From Verrucomicrobiota bacterium (lineage in GTDB: Bacteria; Verrucomicrobiota; Verrucomicrobiia; Limisphaerales; UBA8199): a DNA stretch of 64,000 nt. The stretch covers positions 82,305-146,304 of the forward strand of contig JBEKRX010000017.1 of the NCBI GenBank assembly GCA_049518415.1. Direction: 5' to 3'. Positions 6,506-40,280 of this stretch are shown in pieces; the stretch's first letter is position 1, and every line of letters starts with the position of its first letter. The notes under the pieces were generated by a model. The model was not told the origin of the DNA, searched no databases, and saw only the letters and a list, made by a program, of their open reading frames with translations. The position numbers and the translations under genes are program-made.

Positions 6506-7078
6506 TCAGTGGCTCCTGGTCTTGAGCAGGTAGGGTTGCTCCGCCGGCACCCGGCGGAAGGCATCACCGGCGCAGACTTTGGCGATGGCGCATTCATTGC
6601 AATTGACACAGCGGTCGTGGCGGACCTGGAGGAAGAGCGAGCCGTTGCCGAAACGGTTGCAGCCCTCCACGCATTTGGCGCAGCCGATGCAGAGCCCCTC
6701 CTCAATCGTGTATTCGTAATACGGGTCCTCGACGAAGGTGCGTTTGATGGCGCCGGTCGGGCAGAGGCAGTTCTCGGCGCCAGTGTTGAGGTCGTTCGGC
6801 TCCGGCTCGAAATAGCCGGTGCAGAGCTGGCAGTAGCCGCAGATGGCGAAGGCATGCACGCACTTCACCGCCGACTGTTCCAGCACGCAGTGGGTGGCGC
6901 AATTGCCGCAACGCACGCACTTCTGCGGATCGATTTGCCAGACCGTGCCTTGGGCCGCGCTGCGCCCGGCGACCACCCCGATCAGACCGCCCAGGCTCGT
7001 CAAGGCCGCCGCGCGCGCGCCCTCGCGCAGGAACTGCCGGCGGCTGACCGGCGGCTGGCTTGGAGGTTGGTTAGCCAT
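6506..7078 (-). CDS. Tat-exported multi-cluster 4Fe-4S ferredoxin (NapG-like)
   Basis: 190 aa. Twin-arginine signal VSRRQFLREGARAAAL. Cys clusters CVRCGNCATHC, CGYCQLC, CIGCAKCVEGC and CVNCNECAIAKVC. Confidence 0.85.
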   Translation of the reverse strand: MANQPPSQPPVSRRQFLREGARAAALTSLGGLIGVVAGRSAAQGTVWQIDPQKCVRCGNCATHCVLEQSAVKCVHAFAICGYCQLCTGYFEPEPNDLNTGAENCLCPTGAIKRTFVEDPYYEYTIEEGLCIGCAKCVEGCNRFGNGSLFLQVRHDRCVNCNECAIAKVCAGDAFRRVPAEQPYLLKTRSH

Positions 7079-7132
7079 GGTTTTTCAGCAGAGACGAGCT
7101 TTCAAGAGCCTTGCGGGGCAGGGTGGCGGGGG

Positions 7133-13432: not shown

Positions 13433-15433
13433 TTACCTCGCCTTCACATCGTAACAGAACAGGAGGTCCTGATCGCGGATGTACAGTTTGCCGTTGGCAA
13501 TGACCGGGTGCGTCCAGGCCGGCTGCTGGCTGCGGTCGGGCTGGTCGAAGCGGCCACGCTCGAGGTATTGCTTCGGGTTCGGCTCAATCAGGAGCATGGT
13601 GCCCTTCTCGGTGCGATAGTAGAGTCGGCCATCCGCCAGGGCCAGCGAGCCTTTCGGCGCCCGGCGCTCGGCGTCGTCGCGCTCGTCCCAGAGAACGTTG
13701 CCGGTCTGGAAGTCGAGACAGACGAGGAAGCCACCCTCATTGCCGCCGTTGGCGCCATACAGGCAGCCGTCGAAGAAGATCATGCCGCCGTGGTGGTTTT
13801 GCATCTTCCTGGAGGAATAGACTTCTTCGGCCTTGACACCACCATTCGCATCCTTGCTCAGCTTCACCAAGCCACCGCCCGCACCATAGGCCGAGGCGGC
13901 GAACACCGTGCCATCGTGATAGACCGGCGTGGAACAGTTAATAGCCATGCCGTTGGCGGGCCGGTCATACCGCCAGAGGAACTTGCCGTCGGACGCCGCG
14001 ACCCCGACGAGTGCCCTCGCGGTGAGCTGCACGTACTGGCGCTGCCCGTCGAAGTCGATTGCGATGGCCGAGGCGTAGGCCGCTCCAGAACCGCCGAAAC
14101 CACCGGCACCACGGCCGGAGCCACCGGGACCGCGGCCGGGACCACCGGGACCGCGGCCCGGGCCGCCTGGACCACCATCGCGATTACCCCGACCGCCGCC
14201 GAAACCGCCGGCCACCTGGCTCATCATGCCTCCCTCAAAACCTTCATCCGGCTTCCAAACCTGGCCGCTCGAATCCGTAAATGGCGCGGACAGGCCGGCC
14301 TTGATCCGTAGGGTCGCTGCGGATGGCGCCGCACCGGTTACAGCCTCTGCCTGCGGAATGAGTTCAATCCCCTTAATTGCCGCGTTCTCGATCTGAGGCG
14401 TGAAAACAATGCGAAACTCTCCGTTGGTGACTTCCACAGGCACCGTTTCGATGTAGGCGCGGTTGGGACCGCCGGCCTTCGCCCAAACGTCAAAGTCCTT
14501 GAATTCATGCCCCTGGACATTGTAGGAAAAAACGCGCTGGCCAGGGCCGGTAATCCCTTCATAGGTCTCCGCAAAGTAGAGCTTCGCGAGATACTTGCCA
14601 TTGGGAACCTTGGAGGAGAAAGCTGTCATCCCCCAATGCTCGCTCATGAACAAGCCTGGGTCTTTGGTTCCGGTCACCACCGGGGCCGAGCCAGCGCCCC
14701 GTCCGCCGAGACCACCGGGGCCGCCGCCGGGACCGCCAGGCCCGCCCGCGGAACCACCCGGGCCACCGGGACTGCCACCGGGGCCGCCACCGGGACCGCC
14801 GGGCACCTGGCTCTTCCAGATCGTGTTGCCGGTCAACTTGTCGAGGGCCACCAGGATCGCGTCCTGGCCGCCGGGGGTGCAGATGACCTTATCACCATCA
14901 ACGAGCGGCGATTCGCGGTAACTCCAGGTTGGTACGCGCCCGCCAAAATCCCTCTGAAGGCTGCGTTGCCAAATGATCTTGCCGTCTTTGACCTGCAGGC
15001 AAGCCAGGTCGCCGCCCAAGCCCAGAACATAGAGCCGTTCGCCATCTACGGTCGGCGTGCACGCCGGCCCCTCTTTTCCCTGCGGCGCTTGCTGCTTGAA
15101 AGCGGACCCAAGGCGCGTCACCCAAAGTTCCTTGCCATCCTTTTCGGACAGGGCCCAAATGACTTCGTCGTCGCCGCGATTGCTCATGCCGAAGATCCGG
15201 CCAGCGGCAATGGAGGGACCGCTGTAGCCACCGCCGAGTCCGTTGATTTTCCAGGCGAGCGGTGGGCCGTCTTTCGTCCATTCCTTGAGCAGGCCGCTTT
15301 CCTTGGACATGGCGTTGCGGTCGGGACCCTGCCACTGCGGCCAGTCGTCAGCGCGCGCGCAGGACAGCAGGATGGTCCAACAAAGGGCGCTGATGACCGT
15401 CCTCTCAAGGTGCCCAGGTTCTTTCGTTCTCAT
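13433..15433 (-). CDS. Secreted PQQ-like beta-propeller protein interrupted by a malectin-like domain flanked by Gly/Pro-rich linkers
   Basis: 666 aa. Signal peptide followed by [13 protein letters not shown]. Propeller blades lie at aa 30-210 and 451-666. The insert at aa 211-450 has [30 protein letters not shown], then [41 protein letters not shown], then [28 protein letters not shown], then [21 protein letters not shown]. Confidence 0.75.
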
Positions 15434-15549
15434 ATTGCGTTTCGCGTTTTTTGGTCATTTGACCGTTTTCCGGCATTTAGCTGACGTGACATGCGGACAT
15501 TCAAAACGAAGTCCGCCAACTTTTTCGGACGTGCTCCCGCGCCGCGATG

Positions 15550-16926
15550 TCATTGAGCCACCTTCACGCACTTTAATTGTCTCTGATCCCGCACGAGGAG
15601 CCTTCCATCGGCAAGCGCCATCGGCGCCCAGTTCTGAGTTTGACCTCCAACTCGTGAAGCCAACGGATCATTTTCTGATCCTGTTCCTCCTTCTCCAAGC
15701 AACTTTGCTGATGCAAGCTGCTTAAAGCCGGATGGATCAGGCTCTATAAGGTATAACGTCTGCGCACCATCGCTGGCCAGAATCAGCCCATCGACCAGAA
15801 TCATACTCCCTTTATTAAAATCAGGTGAACGCTTGGTCTGCCACATGATCTTGCCATCCATGCTCATACACACCATGCCGTCACGCCGTTCATTGGTGCC
15901 GTATTCACCATAAAAGTAGCCTTTGTAGAATATCGGCGGTTTCGTCTGGTCGCCAAATTGCCTGGTGGTAAACAGTTCGGTTGTGCCGTAGCTGCCTTCC
16001 GCCTTTTTTTCGACCTTGATCATCGTTGCACCGAGTTCATATCCCCCGACAACCAGCACTTTGTTGTCACCAGCATCAACCGCACTGGGCACGGAGATGT
16101 GACAATGCCACTTCGCATATTTCCACAGGATTTCTCCCGTAAGCGGCTCTATGCCGATGATGTTCCCCATTTCATTTTCATCCGCTCTCGCCCGTTGGAA
16201 AGGATTGGTGGATGGGGTTACCATAACAACCTGGTCTTTCCCGTCCACCTTTACGATTGCGGGGCTGACGTATCCGACATAGCCCAGGGAAGGCGTGCTC
16301 CATTTAACTTTCCCCGTGAGCTTCTCATACGCCACCACGCCAGCCTTGGGCGCTTGGGAGGCCACAATCAGCAGGTCATCGTAAATCAGCGGGTTCTGGG
16401 TGATGGCCCACGTTGGAAATCGGCCTTCGGGTCCCGCTCCAAACGCCGATCCACCGCCTGCCAGACCGCCGAAGTCCGTCCCAATGTTCTTATTCCAGAC
16501 TGGTTTGTGTGTGTTTATGTCTATGCAATAAAGGTCGCCGTTGTGACCGCATGAATAGACGTTCTTGCCGTCCACAGTTGGGACGCTTCGTGAGCCGGGA
16601 AACATAACAGTTCCGGGAGCGTCATAAGCAAGATTCCAGAGCTCTTTACCGTTGGAAAGGTCTAAACAACGAAGATTATCGCCTACCTTATCGTCCCTAT
16701 CGAGCAAGTAAACCTTGCCCTCTTTGACAACAGGTCCACCAAAGCCTCTGCCAACAGTAACAGTCCATACAACTTCCGGCCCATTCTGAGGCCAGGAGCG
16801 TAAAATGCCTTTCTGGGCTGATGTGCTGTTCCTATTTGGTCCAAGATATTGCGGCCAATCCTCCGCGACCGCGGAAGACATCAGGATTGCCCAAGAAAGG
16901 GCGCTGACTAAGGTTTTGGTATTCAT
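15550..16926 (-). CDS. Secreted PQQ-like beta-propeller protein (paralog, markedly lower GC)
   Basis: 458 aa. [36 protein letters not shown] parallels the N-terminus of 13433..15433. The gene and its flanks look ~50% GC, against ~65% for the neighbours. Confidence 0.8.
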
Positions 16927-16932
16927 AGAATG

Positions 16933-17316
16933 TTATCTATCAGCTTTATTAGTTTGAGTGTTATACGTGAGGGTGGGAAAAGAGAGGCAGTACTGTTCGA
17001 GCCCCGCTCGGCAGTTGTCACAGGTGCGGCACGAATCCACCATGCACCCCACCGCGCTCAGGTCCCCCGGCTTGAACTTGGCAACGCGGGAGCCCGCCCG
17101 GGTGACGCGGCCGAGAATCTCATGACCCGGCACGCAGGGATAAATGGTGTTGTGCCATTCATTCCGGGCCTGGTGCAGGTCCGAGTGGCAGACCCCGCAG
17201 TATAGAATTTCGATTTCGACGTCCAGGGGGCCGGGTTCACGCCGGGTGATACCAAACGAGGCCAGGGCCGAAGTGGCGCTCTGCGCTGCATAGGCTTGGA
17301 CTTTGGTCGTAGTCAT
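16933..17316 (-). pseudogene. Zn-dependent alcohol dehydrogenase (YahK/CAD-like), N-terminal third only
   Basis: EILYCGVCHSDLHQARNEWHNTIYPCVPGHEILGRV and CRTCDNCRAGLEQYC are the catalytic and structural Zn motifs. Homology stops after ~120 aa and runs into AT-rich sequence upstream of the low-GC PQQ gene. The remaining ~230 aa are absent. Confidence 0.75.
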
Positions 17317-18679: not shown

Positions 18680-19929
18680 TCCTCCGCGCCCGCGTGGTCC
18701 TGCCCATCCGGCAGCCGCCGATCCCCGATGGCGCCGTCCTGCTGTGGCGCAATCGCATTGCCGCCCTCGGACGCTGGCGCGACCTGTCGGCTGGCCCGCG
18801 CCCGGCCATCGACTTGGGCGAAGTGGCCCTGCTGCCCGGCCTGGTCAACGCCCACTGCCATCTCGATTACACCAACATGGCTGGCCACTTCGCGCCCCCC
18901 AGGGTTTTCACCGATTGGCTCAAACTGATGAATGCCACCAGGACCGGCTGGACCCTGGCCGATTACACCCAATCCTGGCGCCAGGGCGCGCAGATGCTCC
19001 TCCGCACCGGCACCACCACCGTGGGCGACATCGAAGCCGTGCCCGACCTCCTGCCGGCGGCCTGGCAAACCACGCCCTTGCGCGTCCTCTCGTTCCTGGA
19101 AATGATCGGCCTCGGTCGCCGTCCCGCGCGGGACATTGTCCAGGAGACGGTCGCCCGGCTCGCCTCGCTGCGCGGCGCCCGCTGCCGCCCCGGCCTGGCG
19201 CCGCACGCGCCCTATTCGACGCTGCCGGAACTGCTGCGCCTGAGCGCCGCCACCGCCCGCCGCCGCCGTTGCCGCCTCGCCACCCACGTCGCCGAGTCCG
19301 CCCTGGAGTTCGAAATGTTCACCCGCGGCCGGGGCGAAATGTTCGACTGGCTCCGGGGCAACGCGCGGGACATGTCCGATTGCGGCCTCGGCTCCCCGGT
19401 CCAGCACCTGGAACGATGCGGGATGCTGAACGAAAACCTCCTGGCGGTCCACGTCAACTACCTGGCACGGCAGGACGCCGCCCTGCTGGGCAAACGCCAG
19501 GTCAGCGTCGCCCATTGTGCGCGCAGCCATTTGTATTTTCGCCACCAGCCCTTTCCGCTGCGCGCCTTGCGCCAGGCGCGGGTGAACATCTGTCTGGGCA
19601 CGGACAGCCTCGCCAGCGTCTATAAAACCGCCCGGCAAAGCCTCGAACTGAACATGTTCGAGGAGATGCGGGCGGTGGCGGAGCGCAACTCCACACTCCC
19701 GCCGTGCGAGGTCCTGCAAATGGCCACCCTCAACGGCGCCCGCGCCCTGGGCTTGGAAGGCCAGGTCGGCGAGCTTGCCCAGCACGCCTTCGCCGACCTC
19801 ATCGCCCTCCCGTTTGCCGGGAACATGCCCGACCTTTACCAGGCCATCCTCGAGCATCGGGGCCCTGTGGCGGCGAGCATGATTGATGGCCGGTGGGCGA
19901 TTGCGCCCCGCGATCATGAGCGCCTTTAA
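18676..19929 (+). CDS. Amidohydrolase-family protein (nucleoside/aminofutalosine-deaminase-like)
   Basis: LLPGLVNAHCHLDYT metal-binding motif and HVAES motif. GTG start overlaps the hpf stop (GTGA). Confidence 0.7.
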   Translation: MILRARVVLPIRQPPIPDGAVLLWRNRIAALGRWRDLSAGPRPAIDLGEVALLPGLVNAHCHLDYTNMAGHFAPPRVFTDWLKLMNATRTGWTLADYTQSWRQGAQMLLRTGTTTVGDIEAVPDLLPAAWQTTPLRVLSFLEMIGLGRRPARDIVQETVARLASLRGARCRPGLAPHAPYSTLPELLRLSAATARRRRCRLATHVAESALEFEMFTRGRGEMFDWLRGNARDMSDCGLGSPVQHLERCGMLNENLLAVHVNYLARQDAALLGKRQVSVAHCARSHLYFRHQPFPLRALRQARVNICLGTDSLASVYKTARQSLELNMFEEMRAVAERNSTLPPCEVLQMATLNGARALGLEGQVGELAQHAFADLIALPFAGNMPDLYQAILEHRGPVAASMIDGRWAIAPRDHERL

Positions 19930-21154
19930 CCAAGAACTGGCCCGCCGCCTGGCCGCGCTGCGCGAACAGGGACTCTATCGCGAATTGCGCCGCGTCGATT
20001 CGCCCCAAGCCCCTCACCTCGAGGTCGACGGCCAGGCCCTGCTCAACTTTTCTTCCAACGACTATTTGGGCCTCGCCAATGAGCCCGCTCTGAAAGAGGC
20101 CGCCTGCCAGGCCGTGCAGCGATACGGGGCCGGGGCCGGCGCCGCCCGGCTCACCTGCGGCTCGCTCGCGCCCCACCACGAACTGGAGGAAGCGCTGGCC
20201 GCCTTCAAAGGCGCCGCCGCTGCGCTGAGCTTTTCCACCGGCTACGCCGCCGCCCTTGGGGCCATCGGCGCGCTGGTGGGCAAAGACGACTTCCTCATTC
20301 TCGATAAACTCGTGCACGCCTGCATCGTCGACGCCGCCCGCCTCGCCGGCGCCAAACTCCGCATCTTCGCCCACAACGATACCGAAGACCTCGAGCACAT
20401 CCTCCAATGGGCGGAGCGGCAAGTCGGCCGCCCGAAGTCCACAGCCGACGCCTCGCGCCCGCGCGTGCTCGTGGTGACGGAGAGTGTTTTTTCGATGGAC
20501 GGCGACCAGGCGCCGTTGCGGGAGCTTGTGGCGCTCAAAGAGAAATACGGCGCGTGGCTGATGGTGGACGAGGCCCATGCCACCGGGCTCTATGGCCCGA
20601 ACCGGCGCGGCCTGGCTGAGGAACTCGGCGTCAGCGAGCAGATCGAAGTCCAGATGGGGACCCTGGGCAAAGCGCTGGGCGCGGCGGGCGGCTATATCTG
20701 CGGCTCACGGACGCTCATCCAGTACCTGGTCAACCGCGCCCGGACCTTCCTCTTCTCGACCTCGCCCGTGCCCGCGGCCGTCGCCGCCGCCACCGCCGGC
20801 ATCCGCTTCGTGCAATCCACCGCCGGCCAGCAGCGTCGCAACCTCCTCTGGCAACGAGTCTCCGACCTGCGCTCAGCTCTCGCCAACCAAGCCCCAGGGC
20901 CGCGCCCCCCGGCCCTCGCCCCTCTCCGCTCACCCCTGCCCGGCGCCATCATCCCCCTCCTGGTCGGCGACGAAAACCGCGCCGTGCAAATCTCCGCCGC
21001 CCTGCGCAGCCGTGGCATTTTCATCCCTGCCATCCGTTACCCAAGCGTCGCCCGCGGCCAGGCCCGCCTGCGCCTCACCCTCACGGCCGGCCACAGCCTG
21101 GCCGACCTCGAACAACTCCTGGCCGCGCTGCGGACCCTCGACTTCGGCGCTTGA
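19916..21154 (+). CDS. bioF: 8-amino-7-oxononanoate synthase
   Basis: LREQGLYRELRRVDSPQAPHLEVDGQALLNFSSNDYLGLANEP, TESVFSMDGDQAPL and MVDEAHATG. Start set at MSAFNQ (ATG 19916). Confidence 0.9.
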   Translation: MSAFNQELARRLAALREQGLYRELRRVDSPQAPHLEVDGQALLNFSSNDYLGLANEPALKEAACQAVQRYGAGAGAARLTCGSLAPHHELEEALAAFKGAAAALSFSTGYAAALGAIGALVGKDDFLILDKLVHACIVDAARLAGAKLRIFAHNDTEDLEHILQWAERQVGRPKSTADASRPRVLVVTESVFSMDGDQAPLRELVALKEKYGAWLMVDEAHATGLYGPNRRGLAEELGVSEQIEVQMGTLGKALGAAGGYICGSRTLIQYLVNRARTFLFSTSPVPAAVAAATAGIRFVQSTAGQQRRNLLWQRVSDLRSALANQAPGPRPPALAPLRSPLPGAIIPLLVGDENRAVQISAALRSRGIFIPAIRYPSVARGQARLRLTLTAGHSLADLEQLLAALRTLDFGA

Positions 21155-21231
21155 ACCTCAGACGCATTTCACTTTTTTTTGGTAGCCTTTCTGGCTTTTT
21201 ATCTTAATCCTCGCTCCTGATCTTCATCCGA

Positions 21232-21609
21232 ATGAATCGCCTCTTCGACCATGAGAAACTGGAGGTTTATCGGGAGTCTCTGGCCTTCGTCGCCTGGCTC
21301 GAGCCCCTGCTGCGAAAGCTGCCCAAATCGGTCGCCGTGCGTGACCAATTGGATCGGGCCAGTACCTCGATGGTTCTGAACCTTGCCGAAGGCAACGGAA
21401 AGTTCACCTCACCCGATCGTTGCCGTTTTTTTGACATTTCGCGCGGGTCGGCTCTGGAGTGTGCCGCGGCGCTGGATGTTCTGGCCTCCCCAGGCCGGTG
21501 TGAGTTGGGTGTGGTCGCCTCCGGGAAAGAGCGGCTACGCAGAATTGTTTCGATGCTCGTGGGGTTAATCAAAGCCAATTCTGATTGGCGGTTGCACGAG
21601 GGAGATTAG
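21232..21609 (+). CDS. Four-helix-bundle protein (23S rRNA intervening-sequence protein / Avd-like family)
   Basis: 125 aa. MNRLFDHEKLEVYRESLAFVAWLEPLLRKLPKSVAVRDQLDRASTSMVLNLAEGNGKFTSPDRCRFFDISRGSALECAAALDVL is the characteristic pattern of the TIGR02436 family. Confidence 0.85.
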   Translation: MNRLFDHEKLEVYRESLAFVAWLEPLLRKLPKSVAVRDQLDRASTSMVLNLAEGNGKFTSPDRCRFFDISRGSALECAAALDVLASPGRCELGVVASGKERLRRIVSMLVGLIKANSDWRLHEGD

Positions 21610-21665
21610 GATTAGGAGATTAGGATTAGGATTAGGATTAAGATTAAGATTAGGATTAAGGTCAG
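21604..21665. repeat. Hexamer tandem repeat (GATTAG/GATTAA), ~10 units
   Basis: gattag gattag ga gattag gattag gattag gattaa gattaa gattag gattaa ggtcag. Starts on the stop codon of the four-helix-bundle gene. Confidence 0.9.
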
Positions 21666-21730
21666 GAGGGACCACCCAAAAAAGTGAAGTGCTCCCTTGA
21701 ACCTCAGACTCTGGAATCAGGCCTTGAAAC

Positions 21731-23287
21731 ATGCACCCCCTCGCCAAACTGGATCACCTCTACCTCTGGCACCCCTTCACCCAGATGCGCGATTGGCTCA
21801 AGCGCGAGCCCCTGGTCATTGTGCAAGCCTGCGGCGCCGTGCTGCGCGATGCCCAGGGCCGTGAATACCTCGATGCCAACTCCTCCATCTGGACCAATCT
21901 CCATGGCCATAATCAGCCCCGGATCAACGCGGCCATCCGGCAGCAGTTGCGCAAAATCGCCCACAGCTCGGCCCTCGGCTACGCCAACGAACCCGCCAGC
22001 CGCCTGGCCGAACAACTGGTCAAGGCCGCCAATCCCTGCTGCGTGGCGCAGGCTGGAAGCGTGCACCGGGCGAGGACATTAGTGGGGCAGGCGGCCCGCC
22101 TGCCAGGAGGGCGTCTCGCCCTCGAAACCAACGCGGGCGAGACGCCGGCCCCACTACCCGTGCCGGCCCTGCGGAAAGTCTTCCTGTCCGACGACGGCGC
22201 CACAGCCATCGAGGTCGCCCTCAAACTCGCCTATGAGTTCACCCGCCGCGCTGGCCGCAGCGCCAAACCCAAATTCCTCTCGCTGGACGGCGCCTATCAT
22301 GGCGACAGCCTTGGGGCCGTGGCCCTGGGCCACATTGACCGGTTTCACAAGGCCTACGCGGGCCTGTTGTTCAAGACCGACAAGGTCATGGCGCCCTACT
22401 GCTATCGGTGCCCGTTCAATCGCGCCAGACCCGAGCGCGCCGACGCCCGCCAGTATCGCAAGTGCCGCTGGCAATGCCTGGACGCGCTGGAACGGAAATT
22501 CGAGGTCCAGCGGAAAAGGGGCAACCCTTATGCCGCCTTCGTCTTCGAGCCCTTGTTGCAAGGGGCGGCCGGCATGATTCCTCAGCCCGCAGGCTGGCTG
22601 CGCCGCGCCGCCCAAATCGCCCGCGCCCACGACGCCTTATTGCTCGCCGACGAAGTCATGACCGGCTTCGGCCGCACCGGGTTCCTGCACCCGCCCACTC
22701 CCTCACCCGCTCAGGCCCTCTCTCCCGCCCCCGCCCCGCCTCTCTTCGCCTGCCACCATGAGGCCGTCCAACCCGATTTTCTCGCCCTGGCCAAGGGCCT
22801 CACCGGCGGCTATCTGCCCATGGCGGCCACGCTCACCAGCCAAGCCGTCTTCGACGCGTTCCTCGGCGAATACGGTGAATTCAAGACCTTCTTCCACGGC
22901 CACAGTTTCACCGGCAACCAACTCGGGGCCGCCGCCGCCCTGGCCAGCCTGCAACTCCTCCAAGGGGCCCGGTCCATCCGTGCCCGGCAGCAACTTCAGC
23001 AAGCGTTGCGGGACCAATTGCCCGCCCTATGGTCCCTGCCACTCGTCGGCGACATTCGCCAGGTCGGCCTGGTCGCCGGGGTCGAACTCGTTCGCGACTG
23101 GCGCACGCGCGAACCGTTCGACCTGCGCGACCGCGCGGGCCTCCGCGTGTGCCAGGCCATGGCCAAACGCGGCGTCCTCACCCGCCCGATCGGCAACGTC
23201 ATCGTGCTCATGCCCCCCTATTGCACGACCCCGGAGCAGGTGCAATGCATCGTGGCCGCCCTGCGCTGGGCGGTCAGCACGCTATGA
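21731..23287 (+). CDS. bioA: Adenosylmethionine-8-amino-7-oxononanoate aminotransferase with two in-frame insertions
   Basis: DHLYLWHPFTQM, SDDGATAIEVALKLAYEF, DEVMTGFGRTG and LAKGLTGGYLPMAA are BioA signatures. 518 aa against the usual ~430-450. Extra segments lie at about 22034-22167 and 22682-22741. Confidence 0.9.
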   Translation: MHPLAKLDHLYLWHPFTQMRDWLKREPLVIVQACGAVLRDAQGREYLDANSSIWTNLHGHNQPRINAAIRQQLRKIAHSSALGYANEPASRLAEQLVKAANPCCVAQAGSVHRARTLVGQAARLPGGRLALETNAGETPAPLPVPALRKVFLSDDGATAIEVALKLAYEFTRRAGRSAKPKFLSLDGAYHGDSLGAVALGHIDRFHKAYAGLLFKTDKVMAPYCYRCPFNRARPERADARQYRKCRWQCLDALERKFEVQRKRGNPYAAFVFEPLLQGAAGMIPQPAGWLRRAAQIARAHDALLLADEVMTGFGRTGFLHPPTPSPAQALSPAPAPPLFACHHEAVQPDFLALAKGLTGGYLPMAATLTSQAVFDAFLGEYGEFKTFFHGHSFTGNQLGAAAALASLQLLQGARSIRARQQLQQALRDQLPALWSLPLVGDIRQVGLVAGVELVRDWRTREPFDLRDRAGLRVCQAMAKRGVLTRPIGNVIVLMPPYCTTPEQVQCIVAALRWAVSTL

Positions 23288-25583: not shown

Positions 25584-26576
25584 TCAGGCCTGAGCTTTTT
25601 CCACCACCGCGGGTTGCTTTTCGACGAAGTGTCCGAAGTTGCGGAACTTGGCATAGCGCTGTTTCAGGCGGTCCGCAGGGGACAGCTTGAGGAGTTCTTC
25701 CAGGTGCTTGAGCAGAGCATCCCGCACCGTCCCGGTGGTCTGGTCTGGGTCGTTGTGGGCACCGCCGAGAGGCTCGGGGATGATTTCATCCACCAGGCCC
25801 AACTGAAGGAGGTGCTGGGCGGTGATCTTTAGGGCCTCGGCGGCCCTTGGCGCGGCCGAGCGGTCTTTCCACAGGATGGCCGCGCAACCCTCCGGGCTGA
25901 TCACCGAGTAATAGGCATTTTCCAGGATCACAACCCGGTCGGCCACCCCGATGCCGAGGGCGCCGCCCGAACCGCCCTCGCCCACGACGGCGGCGATAAT
26001 GGGCACCTGGAAGAGCATCATCTCGCGCAGGTTCACGGCGATGGCCTCGGCGATGTGCCGTTCCTCGGCGCCGATGCCGGGATAGGCCCCCGCCGTATCG
26101 ATGAGCGAAATAATCGGCAGGCCGAACTTGTCCGCCAGCTTCATCAGCCGCAGCGCCTTGCGATAGCCTTCCGGGTGGGCGGACCCGAAATTGCGGAGGA
26201 TGTTTTCCTTGGTGTCGCGGCCTTTTTGGGTGCCGACTGCCATCACCTTGTGCCCGCCCAGGCAGGCAAAACCCCCCACTACCGCCCGGTCCTCGGCAAA
26301 CAACCGATCCCCATGCAACTCGCTGAACCCGGTGAAGGCCGATTCCAGGTAATCCAAGGTGAACGGTCGCTTGGGGTGGCGGGCAATCTTGATCCGATCC
26401 CAGGCGCTGAGGTTCGCGTAGATCTGGCGCTTGGTCTCCGCCAGCTTCTTTTCAATCAAAGCGACTTCTTCCGCGAAGCTGATCCCCAGGGCAAGCCTTT
26501 CCGGATGTCTTTTCAACTCCTCCAGCGCGTTCTGCAATTCCGCAATCGGCTTTTCGAAGTCGAGTTGGTGTTTCAT
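25584..26576 (-). CDS. accA: Acetyl-CoA carboxylase carboxyltransferase alpha subunit
   Basis: LDFEKPIAELQNALEELK, ARHPKRPFTLDY, IISLIDTAGAYPGIGAEERH and GEGGSGGALGIGV. Start set at MKHQLDFEKP (ATG 26576). Confidence 0.9.
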   Translation of the reverse strand: MKHQLDFEKPIAELQNALEELKRHPERLALGISFAEEVALIEKKLAETKRQIYANLSAWDRIKIARHPKRPFTLDYLESAFTGFSELHGDRLFAEDRAVVGGFACLGGHKVMAVGTQKGRDTKENILRNFGSAHPEGYRKALRLMKLADKFGLPIISLIDTAGAYPGIGAEERHIAEAIAVNLREMMLFQVPIIAAVVGEGGSGGALGIGVADRVVILENAYYSVISPEGCAAILWKDRSAAPRAAEALKITAQHLLQLGLVDEIIPEPLGGAHNDPDQTTGTVRDALLKHLEELLKLSPADRLKQRYAKFRNFGHFVEKQPAVVEKAQA

Positions 26577-26632
26577 CAGCCCGGAGCTTAGTGCTTCCCA
26601 GGCGGGCAGGCAACGCCCTTTTGGTACAGGCA

Positions 26633-26658
26633 AAGAGCCGGATTTGCATCCGGCTCTT
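26633..26658 (-). terminator. Candidate stem-loop between pgl and accA (weak intrinsic terminator or leader structure)
   Basis: AAGAGCCGGAT-ttgc-ATCCGGCTCTT, an 11-bp stem. On the minus strand it is followed only by TGCCTGT, so the U-tract is poor. Confidence 0.3.
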
Positions 26659-26931
26659 AGTGGTGATGAGGTTTATACGCCTTCACCCAGGCGCTCAGAA
26701 GGGTAATGCGGCCAACTATTTGCTCGCTGTTCGAACCGCATTACAAGCAAAACCTCTATACTAACCCTAAACGAACAGCGAAATCGTTATCGCCTTCTTC
26801 CATTCGCCCTGCACCTTTATAGATAACATCAGAAAGCGACTTGTTCAAAGTTTTTTTCGCTTTTCAAAGAGCTCTTTCTCTTCGCCTCGCGAAGAACTGC
26901 GACGTCCTCGCACCCGCCATTGCAACCCTGT

Positions 26932-27714
26932 TTATTCCTTTCCATCAGATCCCCCGCCCGTCAAGTGCAACCGCCGATTTTTCTGAAAAATCGCGTCCAG
27001 AGCCAGGTCCGTGAGAATCCGGGTGTGGCGGCGCTGCCTGAGCACCCGGGCCAGCGGGGTATTGCCCGCCGGGGTGAGAGACTGGCGCAGAGCGGCCGCC
27101 TTGCCTGGGCCAGAGGCCAGCACCCAGACCTGGCCGGCGGCGCGGATAGCCGGGTAACCCAGCGTAATCCGGCGCGGCGGCGGCTTGGGCGCCGTCACCG
27201 GCCGATAAACAGCCGGGCTCGCCCTTAGCTCTTCGGCTTCCCCGGCAAATAAAGACGCCACATGCCCTTCCTCACCCATCCCAAGGAACACCAGGTCGAG
27301 CGCGGGTTGGCCCCCCTTGCCGGGAGGCGCAATGCGCCGCAATCCCGCCTCCGCCTCGGCCGCGGCGGCCTCCGGGAGCGCCTCCCCGCGGATGCGATGG
27401 ACCTGCCCGCCGGCAATGCCCAGCGGACCGAGCAGACATTCATTGGCCAGGCCAAAATTGCTTTCCGGGTTGTCCGGCGGCACGCACCGCTCGTCGCCCC
27501 AGAAGAAATGGACCCGCCCAAGGTCCAGCCGGCGCGCCCGGACCTGGTCCCTCACGGCCAGCAAGAACCGGCGCGCTATCCGTCCCCCCGAAAGCGCCAC
27601 GCAGTACGGCCCGGCGCGCCGGCCAGCCGTTTCCAACTGCTTCAGCCACTGAGCCGCCGCCGTCTGGGCCAGCGCCTCCTCATCGCCGAAAGTCAAGAGG
27701 TCGTAGGTGCCCAT
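26932..27714 (-). CDS. pgl: 6-phosphogluconolactonase
   Basis: [13 protein letters not shown] and [19 protein letters not shown]. Confidence 0.9.
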
Positions 27715-29312
27715 GGGTCTCCGGCAGAGGCGCGCTGGTTAGCCGCCTCGTTGACCGTCCTCGGCTCATGCCAGGCATGGCCGGCCTGGGCCAGCAAATC
27801 ATCCGCCGCCACCGGACCCCAGGTGCCGGCGGCGTAGAATTCGCGGTTGGTCAGCGGCTGGCCCGCCCAGCTCCGGCGCAGCCCGTCGACGAATCGCCAG
27901 GCGGTTTCGACCTCGTCGCGGCGGATGAAAAGGGTGGCATCGCCGGCCATCGCGTCCAGCAGGAGCCGCTCGTAGGCCTCGGGCGTGTAAGCGCCGAACT
28001 CGGCGTCGTAACTGAAATGCATGCGCACCGGCCGCACGGCCACACTGGTCCCGGGGACTTTGCCATTGAACCGCAGGGAGATGCCCTCATTGGGCTGGAG
28101 GCGCAGGACCAGCGAGTTCGAATCCAGCCGCTGGCCGCATTGGGCGGCAAACAGGACATAAGGGGTGGGCCGGAATTGGATGCGCACTTCACTGGCGCTG
28201 GCGGGCAGGCACTTGCCGGTGCGCAGGTAAAAGGGCACGCCCGACCAGCGCCAGTTGTCAATGAACAGCTTGAGCGCGACGTAGGTTTCCACATGGGAAT
28301 CGGATTTGACCCTGGGTTCCTGGCGGTAGCCCGGGTGCAACTCGCCCGCGACCACCCCGGCGAAATACTGTCCGCGCACGACCTGTTTGGCCACCTCCTC
28401 CGCGGTCAGCGGGCGGAGCGACCGGAGCAGCTTGACCTTTTCGTCACGAATCGCCTCGGCCTCCAGTGAGACCGGCGGCTCCATCGCCACGAGCGACAGG
28501 ACCTGCAGGAGATGGTTCTGCACCATGTCGCGCAGCGCGCCGGCCTCCTCGTAATAGCCCCCGCGCTGCCCCACCCCCGGTTGCTCGGCCACGGTAATCT
28601 GCACCTGCTCCACCGAGTCGCGGTTCCAGAGCCGCTCGAAGATCGAGTTGGCAAAGCGGAACATGAGGATGTTCTGCACGGTTTCCTTGCCCAGGTAATG
28701 GTCGATGCGGAAGACCTGCTGCTCACGGGCATAGCGGGTCAGTTCGTCGTTGAGTCGCAGGGCCGAGGCCAAATCGTGGCCGAACGGTTTCTCCACCACG
28801 ACCCGCTGCCAGCCCTCCTCGCCTGGCTGATGCAGCAAGCCGGCGCGATGCGCTTGCTCGACCACCTCGCCGAACTGGCTGGGCATGGTGGCCAGGTAAA
28901 ACAGCAGATTCTGCCGCAGGGGCGGGCGGCCGAAGGCGCTAAGCTGCTGCTCCAGCTTCCGGTATGCGCCCGGCTCCGTGAGGTCACCCTGGCAATAAAA
29001 AATGTGCCCGGAAAACTCCTGCCAAATCGCCTCCTCCACCGGCTTAGTCCGGGAAAACTCCTCCAACGCCCGCCGCAACTCCTCGCGCCACGAGGCGTCC
29101 GTCTTCTGGCGCCGGGCAAGGCCGAGGATGCGAAAATCCGGCGGCATCTGCCCCTCTTTGCACAGATGATAGAGCGCGGGGACGAGCTTGCGGGCGGTCA
29201 AATCGCCGCTCGCCCCGAAGATCACGATGGAACAGGGTTCCGTCAGTTTGCGCGCCTGCCCCAGCCGACACGTCATCACCTCCTCATATTCCGCCCCTTC
29301 AGTTTGGTTCAC
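27693..29312 (-). CDS. zwf: Glucose-6-phosphate 1-dehydrogenase
   Basis: [35 protein letters not shown] and [34 protein letters not shown]. Overlaps the pgl start by 22 nt. Confidence 0.95.
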
Positions 29313-29459: not shown

Positions 29460-29536
29460 GAATTGGAATTAAGATTGCGATTAGAGATTACGGGATTAGG
29501 ATTAGGATTAAGATTAGGATTGGAATTAAGTTAAAG
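29460..29536. repeat. Degenerate hexamer tract (GATTAG/GATTAA/GAATTG family) ending 2 nt before the redoxin ATG
   Basis: gaattg gaatta agattg cgatta gagatta cgg gattag gattag gattaa gattag gattgg aattaa gttaaa. Same unit as 21604-21665. Confidence 0.85.
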
Positions 29537-34027: not shown

Positions 34028-37000
34028 TTATTGAGATTTTATCGCATAGAAACGTGCGCTGTCCCCGGCCGAATAGGGGAGGCTGACGCTGAAATTGCCA
34101 CGGCCATCGAACGTATTGACGCCAATCACCGTCCAGTTGGTGAAAGAAAGCGCCGCGTTGGTGGAGGTCAACACGTAATAGACACTGTTGGCCAGGCCGT
34201 TGGTGCCGCTGATGACCAAACTACTCGTTGCCGATTGAAAGCTGACGGCGGTAATTTTCGTCCCAGTGGTGGAGAAAGGCGGAGCGGCAGTGACCACCAG
34301 TTGGACGGCGGTGCTGTCAGCGCTCTCCTGGAGGGTCGCGTTGTAACCTGCGGGAAGAGTGCCCAGAACAAAGTCGTAGGTGCCACTGATGGGCGTGAGC
34401 GATTGGATCAGTGTCACTGTGCTGGGAACCCTGGCAAGCAGCGGCAATTCGGTCACATTGATGGTGTCGGTGCTGCCGGAAATCGTCAAGTTGCTCGTGA
34501 CGACTGGCGCGCCCGGTCCGCCGACCGCCAGGTTCAGCGTCGAATTGGCCAGGGTGATGCTGCCGATCGGCGCCGCCGCCGTGCCGATCGAACCAGCGAC
34601 CGAGGTCAGACTAACGGTGCCGTTCGTCACCGCAATCGAACTGACCCCGCCGCTGACGATGGTGCTGGCCGCCACCGTGCCGGCGACGTTCAAGCTGCCG
34701 TACGCCAACGTGGACGTGCCCCCGCCAAACGCCTGCCCCAAGGCAAGCTGATTGTTGACCACCACGGTGCCGCCGGGATTGACGGCGAGCGTTCCAGTGA
34801 CAGGCCTGTTCCCGGCGGCGGAGGACATGACTCCGAGTCCCAGCGTGTTTACATTCAAAGCGCCACCCCCCAGGTTGAAGATTCCTGCCGAATAGCCGCC
34901 GTCAGCGGCATTACGGCCCTTGCCCACTATGAGGGTGTCTATCATAATATCTGAAGTGCCGGCGCTGAGATCCACCAAGCCGGCGCTCGCAACCTGAAAG
35001 CCTCCAGGAGGCACAACAATGCCTGAACCTGGAGCGGCATTACAATTGCCGCCATTTTGTGTGTTATCGGCGACAATAAACTCCAACACGCGATCCGAAC
35101 TGGCGCCGCGAAGGTAAAGCTGTGACGGCGGCGTGAAATCGGGATTGAACTCGAAAACCGCAGTGCGGCTACATTGTTCCCTGCCGATGGTTATCGTGTC
35201 AGCGTAGATGGCATTGGTTTGTCCCAAATACAAATAATCCCCGTAGTCCCCAAACCCGGCAACGTCGTTTAGGACAAGCGCGGGCCCGGCGGTAGCCGCA
35301 TAGCCAGTCCCCTGAATGTTTCCCACCTGGGTCAGGCTTATGACGTTCGTTTTGGCCAGGTACACAATCCCATCCTGACGGCCGGCGTTGACGTAGGTTG
35401 CCTGCCCGGGGGTCGGGCCGTTTCCCTGAATGCCAATCAGAAAACGGCCGACGGTGGCTTTGAAGGTATCCAGGCCTGACATATCCAGAGTGGCATACAA
35501 ACCGATCTGCCCGCCTTGGTAAGTGCTGCTGCCTTCGGAGACGTATATGGCTGACCCAACGTTGGTGTTGTTGACGACCAGAGTCCCACCGGCGCCACTG
35601 ATGGTATTGTAACAGGTTCCGTAGCCTCCCGTATCCGTGTCCGTTCCAGAGCTCAGCATTATGCTAATATTCGTATTGAAAACCGTCAGCGTCACGCCGG
35701 GGTTAATAACGGTGTTGTGGGCATAGTCGTGGTTGCCGTAGGCGCTGCCGTTGGTCGCCGCGTACCACAACCCGCCCACCGTGATGTCGGCGTCCACGAT
35801 GTTGTCGGCCCCTGCCGTGGCGGAGGCGGACTCGCCGGTGTTAGCAAAAAATGCCGTGTCATACGTGGCCGGCAGCGGCGGCCACAGCCAATTGGCGCCG
35901 TCGGACCAGTTGATGTTGTTCGCGTTCGCGACATCGGGGCCATTCCAGAAGACGTTTCCCCGGGGTATAATCGGGCCGCTGCTGAACGTCGCCAGGATGG
36001 ACATCGAATCCCCGCTCTCGGTTACGTTTTGGACGACAAAACCGCCGGGGGCGCCGACCTGGAAGTTGGCGGCGCCGCCCACGATGGAACTGGCGGACTC
36101 GACGACGGTTACGGTCGCGGGATATGACTCGATGGGCGGCAGTGACAACAGATTGATCGTATTGATGCCGCTCGCGCTGACATTCTCGGCGTACATGTAG
36201 GAGGTGGCGAAGCCCGAGGCGCTCACGGTAATCGTCGCGTTGGTGAGGTTCAAACTGGTCAACGGAGCCGCGGCCGTGCCAATGCCATTGGTGGCTGCCA
36301 GCGAACCGCCATTCATGTTGATGATGCTGGTGCCGGCGCCACTGGCGCCGGGCGAGGTGGCGACCTGGGTGCTGGCCAGGATATTGTTCGCCAGGACTGA
36401 ACCGCCGTTGATGTTGAGCGTGCCGATCGGAGCGCCGGCCAAGGGGCCGCCGGCAAAGGCCAGATTGAGAGTGTCGTTGACTATCAATGTGCCCGTGCCG
36501 TTCACGTTGACCGTTCCCACAGCGTAGTTGTAAACATTGCCGTCGCTGTAAGCCGGGTTATAACTGACATTGACGGTATCCGCAGTGATGGTCCCCGCGT
36601 TGAAAGTGAGCGCGCCGGTCACCGCCGCCCCGCTGTTTAAGCTATTGCGCGAGGCTTTGCCGATTTGCAACGTGTTCACCAATGCATTGACCGTCCCGCC
36701 GGTAAAATCATTGGTGCCGGAACCTCCGCCGGAGGTTAAAGCGTTTGCCACTCCGTCTCCAATATTCCAACTCGCCACCGCGCCGCCGCTGGCGCCGCCA
36801 ATATAAACCGTCGGATTCCCATTCGTGAAAGCAGGATTGAAGAATATGCCGCCGCTCGCCCATTGGCGGCCGACACTAATGTAGTCGGCAAAGATGGCGT
36901 TGGTCTGGCCCAGGTAAAGGGACGAAGCCATATTATTCCCGTAACCCGCCTCGGTTTCGCCGTCGCCGGCGTCACCGACGTCGAGAGCGACCAGCGAAGA

Positions 37001-39400: not shown

Positions 39401-39726
39401 TGGACCAGGATCCTGGTGTGAAAAGAACCGGGAAGAAGACCAGAAAGTTTTGGCATTTATTCTTAATCACGACTTTGCGGGTGTTAACGGCGTTATTGGT
39501 TCAACATGACCGATTGATGACGAAACTGCAAAAACATAATAAAATCTGGCCATTGATTCACGTATATGCTGAGGGACTCCCCATTGTCGAGACCATTTTT
39601 CAGTTAATTTAAGATCGTGAAATTCCGGGCCTCTCAGGGAGGCGAGTAGCGAGGTAAACCAGCGTATTGGCTCAAGTCGAGCATGTACGCTTGATAGATT
39701 TTTCCCTGCCGCGTGTTCTTGACCGT

Positions 39727-39751
39727 GAAAGGGAAAGGGAAAGGGAAAGGG
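39727..39751. repeat. Hexamer tandem repeat (GAAAGG)x4
   Basis: gaaagg gaaagg gaaagg gaaagg g. Confidence 0.9.
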
Positions 39752-39814
39752 TCACTCCCGGAAATCGGAAACATGGCCTGACGGAACGGCCGATTGAGGG
39801 CAGGATGGGCGCCG

Positions 39815-39942
39815 ATGGCTCGGAAGATTCGCCTCGAGTATGCCGGGGCTGGCTATCATGTGGCCCGGGGAAATCAGGGCCGCGATATTTACGCCGAGGA
39901 TCGCGACCGGAAGCTGTGGCTGAAAACGCTGGCAGAAATTTC
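39815..39942 (+). pseudogene. IS200-like / REP-associated tyrosine transposase (RAYT-type), N-terminal ~42-aa remnant
   Basis: MARKIRLEYAGAGYHVARGNQGRDIYAEDRDRKLWLKTLAE matches the conserved N-terminus (MAR..R.E..GA.YHV..RGN.R..IF.DD.DR..FL..L.E). It is cut off by the 9-mer repeat at 39943. Confidence 0.6.
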
Positions 39943-39976
39943 CCAATCCAGCCAATCCAGCCAATCCAGCCAATGG
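39943..39976. repeat. Nonamer tandem repeat (CCAATCCAG)x3.7
   Basis: ccaatccag ccaatccag ccaatccag ccaatgg. Confidence 0.9.
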
Positions 39977-40280
39977 AGTATTTGCCATTTCGCCCAAAAC
40001 CCGCTATAACTGTCACCCGGTGAATGCCAAACTGACAGCGCCGCCTCGCTTCGCGCCCGGCCAGGAACCGGTTCCTGCCCGTTTCCACGCGCGCGGCCCG
40101 CCGTTTTTGCAGCTATTTCCAGTTATTTCCACTTAAAAATTCGCTGCTTCAATGACCTGTGGCCGGAACACCGAATCCTTCGCAACCATCCCCTCCGCCA
40201 GGAACAATTGCGCGCTTGCGTCGCTTATCCCCAGGCCCGCCTCAGCCAGGAGAAGGTGTTGGCAACCGCCGCCTGAGCAG

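Follow-up and report, generated by a model that had tools for sequence, protein, structure and literature searches.

The DNA analysed here (referred to as the window) is a stretch of 64,000 nucleotides from a Verrucomicrobiota bacterium (contig JBEKRX010000017.1), and this report concerns a 532-bp segment of it (21164-21695) that lies between the genes bioF and bioA. The segment, hereafter the cassette, carries one gene for a four-helix-bundle protein of the type found in intervening sequences (IVSs) of 23S rRNA genes, enclosed by terminal inverted repeats (TIRs) and by a 14-bp target-site duplication (TSD). It is probably a recently active, non-autonomous, IVS-like element that rides on host operon transcripts, its stem being a likely substrate of ribonuclease III (RNase III). 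The features of the locus, including the 125-aa open reading frame (ORF), are as follows:

19883-21154, plus strand: bioF, the host gene upstream, for 8-amino-7-oxononanoate synthase (411 bits against TIGR00858, narrowly short of its cutoff of 426; also PF00155).
21150-21163, plus strand: left copy of the target-site duplication, CTTGAACCTCAGAC, an exact repeat that contains the bioF stop TGA (21152-21154) and abuts the element end set by paralogue alignment.
21164-21182, plus strand: outer terminal inverted repeat of the left end, GCATTTCAC-T8-GG (GGGCGCATYTCAC-Tn-GG in the family consensus), where homology among copies starts.
21183-21231, plus strand: left subterminal arm, GTAGCCTTTCTGGC followed by degenerate NTAATC-type units (TTATCTTAATCCTCGCTCCTGATCTTCATCC), with the arm end 3 nt before the ATG.
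21232-21609, plus strand: gene of the 125-aa four-helix-bundle protein, S23p/IVS-protein type (PF05635 / TIGR02436).
21604-21671, plus strand: right subterminal arm, an array of GATTAG/GATTAA hexamers (about 9 units, then AAGGTCAGGAGGGA), with the ORF stop TAG inside the first unit.
21672-21695, plus strand: outer terminal inverted repeat of the right end, CCACCCAAAAAAGTGAAGTGCTCC (CCACCCAAAAAGTGAAATGCKCCC in the family consensus), where homology among copies stops.
21696-21709, plus strand: right copy of the target-site duplication, CTTGAACCTCAGAC, 21 nt upstream of the bioA ATG (21731).
21731-23287, plus strand: bioA, the host gene downstream, for adenosylmethionine-8-amino-7-oxononanoate transaminase; it points the same way as the cassette (435 bits against TIGR00508, over the cutoff).

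All the coordinates given in an earlier note on this DNA, including those of the 14-mers, the bioF stop codon and the spacing to the bioA ATG, were verified on the sequence. The 14-mer CTTGAACCTCAGAC matched the 64-kb window twice, also when 2 mismatches were allowed (chance mean 0.25), and is not the common word that the earlier note had considered; in a shuffle control (up to 2 mismatches), at least two matches were obtained in 4 of 100 shuffles. The outer termini were recovered as an inverted pair (I2), in which GCATTTCAC-T8-GG is matched with CCAAAAAAGTGAAGTGC (21676-21692) through 15-nt arms that are 93% complementary, and the terminal motif occurred in the window at both cassette ends only. 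The GC content of the cassette was 52.6%, about 15 points under that of its flanks (bioF 69%, bioA 67%), as had been noticed earlier. Removal of the cassette and one 14-mer left 30 nt between the bioF TGA and the bioA ATG: in this reconstructed empty site ...GGCGCTTGAACCTCAGAC is joined straight to TCTGGAATCAGG, with a single 14-mer kept. The compact junction foreseen in the earlier note was thus recomputed at the same 30 nt, a length typical of the gaps in relatives.

The bioF-cassette-bioA order was seen in ten contigs from independent JGI and ENA assemblies, and is therefore not an assembly artefact; the source metagenomes were from peat and soil, and the host was Verrucomicrobiota, Limisphaerales-like. 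No second four-helix-bundle gene was detected in the window by tblastn. Among the genes called within +/-6 kb of the cassette there was no transposase, integrase or reverse transcriptase (RT), in agreement with the earlier observation that no mobility enzyme lies nearby.

Paralogues of the cassette were found at wholly different loci (designated by L numbers), with protein identities of 90-94% and synonymous divergence (dS) of 0.03-0.09; for the host BioA, by contrast, no relative exceeded 77% identity. In an alignment (A1) of the window copy with those of L085, L086, L087 and L092, the DNA was about 95% identical inside the element and the flanks were unrelated. The limits of homology in A1 were G(G)GCGCAT.TCAC at the left and GTGAAATGCKCC(C) at the right (ATGCKCC(C)); homology among copies begins with GGGCGCAT.TCAC and ends with GTGAAATGCKCCC, which places the terminal inverted repeats at the borders of the repeated unit. 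Internal differences were mainly indels in multiples of 6 nt, located in the repeat arrays, and the L086 copy was without its right terminus. The two metagenome samples that contain the window contig also contain the L087 element, on a contig of comparably large size, which suggests that one genome has several cassette copies.

Duplications were assessed with a test anchored on the terminal motif, using 14 independent elements and mismatched left/right flanks as the null. A direct repeat that abutted the element ends and scored at least 7 was present in 6 of the 14 elements, versus 1.6% in the null (binomial p=5e-8). The duplications measured 14 bp for the window copy and 8-10 bp at L085, L089, L101, L114 and L149, and duplications with 1 mismatch were seen at L088 and L096. 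Examples are given below:

L089: AATCGGAGA, then the element (GGGCGC...GCGCCC), then AATCGGAGA, with gaps 0/0.
L149: CGCGTAATCG.
L114: CCGCATGA.

Because the duplicated sequences differ between copies, they are target-site duplications and not a conserved att core. The earlier note had offered both possibilities for the 14-mer: the target duplication stands, and an att core with site-specific recombination was ruled out, since the repeats flanking other copies are unrelated in sequence and length. The cassette was inserted at the bioF-bioA junction via a staggered cut that duplicated 14 bp of target.

In about 35 Verrucomicrobial relatives (BioA 60-76% identical), the bioF-bioA gap measured 16-54 nt and held no four-helix-bundle gene, which makes the cassette a lineage-specific insertion. 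Through the near-identical copies, the duplications and these empty junctions, the proposal in the earlier note that the cassette is mobile but non-autonomous, and bounded by terminal inverted repeats and a target duplication, was borne out, and inverted-repeat copies around other four-helix-bundle genes were indeed found at unrelated loci. We consider it highly probable that the cassette belongs to a mobile element family with TIRs and TSDs.

The compact bioF-bioA junctions of several relatives (L005, L007, L012, L014, L022 and L026; upstream of position 4001) were built of short tandem repeats with 7-8-nt units, (GTAAATC)n, (GACTTTA)n and (ATCACGC)n, that overlap the bioF stop and reach the bioA ATG; these may be a general trait of such genomes or scars of lost cassettes. 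Such junction repeats, together with the 4 of 100 shuffles mentioned above, could be taken to mean that the flanking repeats arose by chance or local duplication and that the gene is an ordinary resident. We give this explanation almost no credence: the exact 14-mers stand at both ends of a segment that is repeated elsewhere at about 95% identity, end-abutting duplications recur at other copies (p=5e-8), the gene is absent from this junction in relatives, and the GC content of the cassette lies 15 points below that of the flanks.

The terminal inverted repeats are continued inwards by arrays of a hexamer. Nine exact GATTAG/GATTAA units were found at 21604-21659 (Tandem Repeats Finder: period 6, 8.8 copies), and the stretch upstream of the ATG (21198-21233) is a degenerate complement of this run (inverted pairs I1, 23 nt, 83%, and I3, 14 nt, 93%). 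The hexamer run that the earlier note had described after the gene therefore exists, but it is one arm of an inverted pair and not a downstream appendage, and the composite inverted repeat amounts to about 60 bp when folded, not 15-17 bp. The element is composed of the outer repeats (GGGCGCATYTCAC-Tn-GG ... CC-An-GTGAAATGCKCCC), the (NTAATC)n and (GATTAN)n arrays and one 125-aa gene.

For the family survey, 80 metagenome loci encoding relatives 62-95% identical were fetched, 70 of them with enough flank. At least two NTAATC units just upstream of the ATG, combined with at least two GATTAN units from the stop codon on, were present in 62 of the 70 loci, and units in the wrong orientation were essentially absent; this inverted bracket is the most conserved non-coding feature of the family. 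Left arms of sister copies carried 2-8 intact CTAATC/TTAATC units. In about 1 Mb of sequence, 125 arrays of at least 3 units adjoined four-helix-bundle genes versus 5 solo arrays, two of which are accounted for by an internally deleted, ORF-less derivative at L047 (6931-7100). In this derivative, which resembles a miniature inverted-repeat transposable element (MITE), the left terminus (GGGCGCATTTCAC) is followed by five CTAATC/TTAATC units and by what is left of the ORF, its last ~20 nt (CTGCACGAAGGAGATT); then come three GATTAA/GATTAG units and a right end that is degenerate. At L047, bioF and bioA are 3.2 kb apart and not adjacent. The type of unit was correlated between the two arms (GTAATC with GATTAC, r=0.61) and changed with the protein clade. 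In the outer terminal helix, compensatory double changes were observed in 6 of 13 pairs, and 85% of cells were paired, versus 77% in shuffles (a level reached by 0 of 500) and 28-49% in slid registers.

A solo array of the GATTAG/GATTAA type is also present in the window at 29468-29530 (about 8.5 degenerate units), in the divergent spacer between a zwf-like gene (27693-29312, minus strand, labelled from its translation alone) and a thioredoxin-like gene, 9 nt before whose ATG (29539) the array ends. There was no four-helix-bundle gene, upstream-type arm or terminal repeat near this array, which may be the leftover arm of a lost cassette.

The same inverted design is built from other repeat units in further clades of the protein, among them those of Acidobacteriota, of a genome labelled Clostridia and of a cyanobacterium:

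L165, Limisphaerales: a second, bAvd-like gene (FHB2) beside a hexamer-type cassette, with RGGTCAG arrays upstream and CTGACCG arrays downstream.
L171, Terriglobales (Acidobacteriota): heptamer arms (z=12.6), with the stop TGA within the first unit.
L174, metagenome contig: heptamer arms (z=18.3).
L172, 'Clostridia' metagenome-assembled genome: heptamer arms (z=4.2).
L170, Picosynechococcus sp. PCC 7003 plasmid NZ_CP016476 (locus 647-1076): GGAGATAA-type units upstream and CTCCTAATC-type units downstream.

Complementarity is kept across clades while the arm sequence changes, with a few copies one-armed or weak (L173, L175). The L170 cassette, the one match in a plasmid collection searched as a cross-phylum sample, takes up the whole cas10/cmr2-cmr3 spacer in a type III-B CRISPR operon. 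At L165 (3001-4119; also L166 and L167), two different cassettes, one with hexamer and one with heptamer arms, follow each other in tandem; the gene on one side encodes a Wzz-like kinase and that on the other a DUF218 protein, and a ParE/antitoxin pair is located 1.2 kb downstream. The Terriglobales polysaccharide locus (L171, 1-2384) held three four-helix-bundle genes, one of them cut by the locus end, and an 87-aa GIY-YIG gene, and a long (AGTCAGT/TGTCAGT)n array followed its second four-helix-bundle gene.

A small PDDEXK_3 (PF13366) gene at L169 was enclosed by an inverted CTCTGCG/CGCAGAG bracket (28 nt, 100% complementary), so that PDDEXK_3-type genes may be a second family of small ORFs that use the same bracket. 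A second inverted heptamer pair lies outside the first around this gene (L169, 11488-12217), and at L175 (3095-3481) a PDDEXK_3 gene adjoins a four-helix-bundle cassette in a polysaccharide operon.

The 125-aa product scored 63 bits against PF05635 (cutoff 33.8) and 54.9 bits against TIGR02436 (cutoff 24), and both scores, above the curated cutoffs, confirmed the family named in the earlier note. An AlphaFold2 monomer model had four helices (predicted local distance difference test score 79.4, predicted template modelling score 0.77). Foldseek searches with this model returned 2GSC (E 4.5e-5, template modelling (TM) score 0.78-0.86) and 2RLD (TM ~0.8, E ~1e-4), with Avd (4DWL, 8UB7) more distant (TM 0.70-0.8, E ~1e-2), and phmmer with the window protein matched 2GSC (E 3e-8). 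The nearest solved relatives are therefore the orphan proteins 2GSC and 2RLD, both pentameric, and the Avd protein of diversity-generating retroelements (DGRs) is farther off. According to the account of Lin 2006 given in PMC4990558, 2GSC is a pentamer. Our best guess is that the cassette protein would form a nucleic-acid-binding ring, like 2GSC or Avd, that acts on the cassette's own arms. A PADLOC scan of the protein gave no match to known defence families, and a PHROGs scan of the window protein gave no match.

The family comprised 4,962 clusters at 50% identity (E<=1e-3), or 1,376 at E<=1e-10. Many cluster representatives (P0297-P0311 and many others) were ~250-280 aa long with two four-helix-bundle stretches each, either as tandem cassettes read as one ORF or as genuine two-domain fusions, and at L161 (202-1098) two four-helix-bundle copies lie within one 298-aa reading frame.

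The kinship with Avd could mean that the gene is a DGR remnant, namely an Avd gene that survived the loss of the RT, template and variable repeat. Avd is a small basic protein that forms a pentamer and binds RT and RNA; it shares the superfamily fold (bAvd, 4DWL, 8UB7, TM 0.70-0.8), and the sister-clade protein L165 FHB2 matched the PHROG 'Avd protein of DGR'. A remnant is nevertheless very improbable. Identity to Avd was 11-12%, no RT gene was called within +/-6 kb, no template or variable repeat lies near the cassette, and the repeats found were the cassette's own only. The window protein was without a PHROG match and closer to 2GSC/2RLD (E ~1e-4) than to Avd (E ~1e-2), and dozens of single-gene cassettes with termini and duplications carried no DGR parts.

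With respect to host transcription, both neighbouring genes were in sense with the cassette in 30 loci and antisense in 4; a second calling method gave 23 sense versus 5 antisense, and in database gene calls both were in sense at 8 loci and antisense at 2, with a mixed arrangement at 1. Strand calls made from ORFs are noisy for individual loci (L176 was called -+, and -- by database gene calls); at L176 a copy of the window subfamily is antisense to both neighbours. A scheme in which young copies are random and old copies sense-biased was not supported (5:1 vs 18:4, Fisher p=1). In 20 of 60 loci, at most 15 nt separated the end of the downstream arm from the next start of a long ORF on the plus strand, and the element commonly occupies the entire stop-to-start spacer. 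A consensus scan of the window cassette detected no promoter-like site and, for the strand of the cassette, nothing terminator-like from one end to the other; one minus-strand match lay inside the ORF and another in bioF. An Rfam scan of 20900-21900 (E<=1) gave no match and no rRNA.

The predicted minimum-free-energy fold of the cassette paired its termini (z=-2.5), and its left subterminal arm with the right one, in line with the terminal stem considered in the earlier note. For the window copy, the arm-only stem reached -68.9 kcal/mol as sense RNA vs -48.5 as antisense RNA, and the fold of the whole cassette -211 (sense) vs -185 kcal/mol (antisense). As read off the sequence, the single terminal substitution makes a U-G pair in sense RNA but an A-C mismatch in antisense RNA.

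The median ratio of nonsynonymous to synonymous substitution (dN/dS) of the ORF was 0.14 (258 pairs). Copies at the same site in different organisms gave ratios of nonsynonymous to synonymous differences per site (pN/pS) of 0.06-0.17 at pS 0.19-0.55, and the ORF is thus under purifying selection, also in copies fixed at one site. Frameshifted or truncated copies were found at L118, L135 and L138.

From these data we propose the following course of events. Insertion would be catalysed in trans by a transposase that recognises the termini; a DDE-type enzyme is suggested tentatively, as a possibility somewhat short of even. A cassette without promoter or terminator of its own would depend on read-through transcription from the host operon, which we regard as the likely mode of expression and which would explain why the retained copies are mostly sense and spacer-filling. 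In the transcript, the arms would base-pair with each other over ~60 bp, so that the ORF is looped out, and RNase III would cut this stem, as in the 23S rRNA IVSs with the same protein family. The cassette mRNA would thus be released, and the bioF and bioA fragments would be left with base-paired ends. For RNase III-type cleavage, argued by analogy, we see a slightly better than even prospect.

Several points weigh against this proposal. The duplication lengths (14, 10, 9, 9, 8, 8 and 8) are spread more widely than in most single DDE families, a clear duplication was absent in 8 of the 14 elements with these termini, and no transposase with matching termini was found in the window or the fetched loci. 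No near-identical empty bioF-bioA site was found in databases, where empty sites came only from the relatives with 60-76% identical BioA; this reflects a host without a close relative there, its BioA forming a 100% cluster of its own with the next relative 77% identical. The copies of the recent burst, including the window copy, had pN/pS of 0.5-1.8 on 3-9 synonymous differences, i.e. near-neutral values, and the window ORF itself may be without any activity. Conversely, purifying selection on the fixed copies is unlike the prediction for a purely selfish passenger. Stem formation and RNase III cleavage are predictions, the latter from stem length and the Coxiella precedent. Finally, the family showed no strand asymmetry in its arms: mismatches were G-U in the sense RNA in 115 cases vs G-U in the antisense RNA in 89 (p=0.08), and the arm energy was more favourable for the sense RNA at 25 loci and for the antisense RNA at 33 (p=0.72). 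Mismatch counts and arm-only folds were used for this comparison because duplex energies over 200-nt flanks were uninformative, being dominated by the GC-rich host flanks. The window's own subfamily leaned towards sense (7 of 9), and these copies are not independent owing to recent shared ancestry. The strand asymmetry described in the earlier note thus holds for the window copy (-68.9 vs -48.5 kcal/mol) and fails for the family; limited to one copy, it is unusable as proof of RNA-level structure. Since there is no family-wide asymmetry, selection specifically on RNA is not demonstrated, and a DNA-level role of the arms fits this result equally well.

The arms could accordingly act at the DNA level only, as subterminal sites for a transposase or as a cruciform or hairpin whose complementarity is kept by intramolecular gene conversion, with the RNA stem as a by-product that has no role. 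Subterminal repeats serve as transposase binding sites in Ac/Ds-type elements. Such a role would leave no G-U vs A-C asymmetry and no sense/antisense energy difference, and the compensatory terminal changes would arise just as well if the two TIRs of a pair co-evolved with a single enzyme; the termini and duplications show transposition at the DNA level, and the arms evolve by unit slippage and are still matched. We hold it to be rather unlikely as the full account. Arm sequence varies between clades while complementarity is kept, which is more natural for pairing than for a sequence-specific site; the arms hug start and stop codons, with the stop codon inside the first unit; and the sense bias and spacer-filling argue for a constraint at the transcript level. 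A near-perfect duplex of ~60 bp in a transcript is expected from established biology to be cut by RNase III. The case for an RNA role thus rests on the orientation bias, the arms hugging start and stop codons and the precedent of the 23S rRNA IVSs, which have the same anatomy and are processed as RNA (PMC4990558).

The selection data bear on two further explanations, and the main alternatives are partly compatible with one another and not all exclusive. One is that the cassette has been domesticated as a host-beneficial module (an operon regulator or insulator, or a defence/maintenance gene) and is no longer a parasite. Orthologous copies at the same site are under purifying selection over pS 0.2-0.55, operons for polysaccharide biosynthesis and for type III-B CRISPR systems harbour cassettes repeatedly, in more than one phylum, and retained copies are biased towards sense. 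We find domestication unlikely: the protein matched no PADLOC defence family, the window subfamily has recently been inserted at unrelated sites, in some cases antisense to the genes on either side (L176), and drifts near-neutrally, and pseudogenised or deleted copies exist (L118, L135, L138; L047). Domestication is moreover compatible with a mobile origin, as a later stage rather than a true alternative.

The other explanation is that the four-helix-bundle protein is the cassette's own propagation factor, which would bind the arms and recruit a host nuclease, recombinase or RT, in the manner of Avd. The ORF is the only constant cargo across clades that share no arm sequence, and a family dN/dS of 0.14 combined with near-neutral recent copies is the pattern of selection through propagation. 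The ORF-less L047 derivative (6931-7100) keeps the left terminus and both arms, as MITEs do when derived from autonomous elements; the repeat-unit type is correlated between the arms (r=0.61) and shifts with the protein clade; the fold is related to that of Avd, an RT- and RNA-binding cofactor; and duplications that vary from 8 to 14 bp are more usual where insertion goes through nicks or repair than where a single DDE enzyme acts. A 125-aa helical bundle is, however, without a catalytic motif, and no RT or nuclease was linked to the cassettes examined. The pN/pS of 0.06-0.17 in same-site copies indicates a function kept in place and not only during transposition, and the position of the duplication, flush with the full base of the stem, agrees with recognition of the termini as DNA. 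This explanation is therefore doubtful. Equally speculative is its broadest form, in which PF05635 genes would be the signature cargo of widespread self-insulating mobile cassettes, the 23S IVSs being the first-noticed case, and the protein an arm-binding mobility/maintenance factor that recruits RNase III, a nuclease or an RT; if true, a PF05635 protein acting as its own mobility/maintenance factor would define a new kind of minimal autonomous element.

Other features of the window were recorded as follows. BioA (21731-23287) is 518 aa long vs a typical ~430 aa, and its hidden Markov model matches fall in three separate stretches, which implies lineage-specific, Pro/Ala-rich inserts around residues 95-145 and 318-338. 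An intergenic pocket of low GC (53%) at 39300-40150 is rich in short tandem repeats, with (GAAAGG)4 at 39727-39751, (CCAATCCAG)3.6 at 39943-39974 and (TTTCCAGTTA)3 at 40106-40135; the ORF fragment 39794-40009 (RKIRLEYAGAGYHVARGNQGRDIY...) resembles the N-terminus of IS200-like/RAYT Y1 transposases but had no match in Pfam and NCBIfam, and we do not claim it as one. Two arrays of a 21-nt repeat (CCGGGACCGCGGCCGGAACCA-like, 3-5 copies) at 14093-14173 and 14703-14803 are probably Gly-Pro-rich coding sequence in a large gene, and a 1790-aa repetitive protein is encoded at 34028-39400 (minus strand). Further low-GC pockets (52-56% vs a window mean of 63%) were seen at 15000-17000 and 26000-27000, the first of which contains pyrroloquinoline quinone (PQQ)-repeat beta-propeller genes and a gene with a 127-aa ADH_N product.

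The termini, target duplications, near-identical paralogues and ORF-less derivative provide genomic evidence that an element with IVS anatomy and an IVS protein transposes, and that it has colonised ordinary operons of several phyla, beyond rRNA genes. By the same token, 4,962 clusters now annotated merely as 'four helix bundle protein' are recast as genes carried by mobile cassettes. The design suggests how insertions in general might reside in an operon at little cost, namely looped out of the transcript by a long stem, and predicts RNase III processing sites within biotin, polysaccharide and CRISPR operons. With 0.5 kb, one small protein and simple repeat arms, the element is a compact testable system, and its inverted short-tandem-repeat bracket offers a simple search signature for such cassettes and possibly for other small-ORF passengers (PDDEXK_3).

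rRNA IVSs that carry this ORF are already known. For such cassettes outside rRNA, no description was found in the literature searched (most subscription journals lay outside the search, and a prior mention is possible); this applies to the element in mRNA operons, to its target duplications and paralogous bursts, to the inverted short-tandem-repeat bracket and to the generality across phyla. 23S rRNA IVSs were described around 1990, and their mobility and the role of their ORF were never settled (PMC4990558). As cited there, mobility of rRNA IVSs is an old idea (Burgin 1990; Ralph and McClelland 1993), and the IVS-encoded protein was proposed as a propagation factor by Ralph and McClelland. 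In Coxiella, the 23S IVS carries an S23p ORF preceded by variable heptamer repeats, its terminal inverted repeats make a stem of 28 bp, and RNase III cleaves the IVS in vitro (PMC4990558).

The likeness to stem-bounded 23S rRNA IVSs, which the earlier note had pointed out for an element placed in an mRNA operon, was sustained by the PF05635 protein, the enclosing stem and the bioF-bioA position. The cassette and the IVSs of Coxiella burnetii and Leptospira share the protein family, a similar size (0.43-0.76 kb there, 0.5-0.6 kb here), an ORF within stem-forming terminal inverted repeats, short tandem repeats beside the ORF start and a sense orientation inside the host transcript, and the IVSs were proposed to be selfish or mobile decades ago. 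They differ in that IVSs occupy helix 25 or 45 of 23S rRNA, whereas the cassette lies between protein-coding genes, and in that target duplications and near-identical paralogues, found here, are not reported for IVSs in PMC4990558. In the cassette, a 6-nt unit repeated in long inverted arrays makes up the arms; cleavage by RNase III was shown for IVSs and would be expected for the cassette; and the Coxiella ORF is decaying and apparently untranslated, whereas the cassette family is under purifying selection.

Correia elements of Neisseria are small, non-autonomous intergenic elements with terminal inverted repeats and target duplications that are read through from host promoters; their mRNA hairpins are cut by RNase III, with effects on neighbouring genes. 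These and other MITEs are non-coding, measure 100-160 bp and have a fixed TA duplication. The cassette, in contrast, has a conserved, selected ORF, subterminal tandem-repeat arms and 8-14 bp duplications and does not fit the strict non-coding definition, although its ORF-less L047 derivative is a MITE-like form. With integron cassettes it shares a promoterless single gene, an imperfect inverted-repeat element and an external promoter. Integron cassettes, however, have one 3' attC, are inserted by an integrase at attI with no target duplication and are arrayed at one locus, whereas here the inverted repeats flank the ORF on both sides and the sites are scattered, each with a different duplicated sequence, and no integrase was called within +/-6 kb of the window copy; an integron-type cassette was ruled out on these grounds. 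REPIN/RAYT and IS200/IS605-type elements are likewise dispersed intergenic inverted repeats with hairpins, mobilised in trans; they depend on HUH transposases acting on single-stranded DNA and have neither target duplications nor a conserved ORF, and the cassette is set apart from them by the target duplications that it makes.

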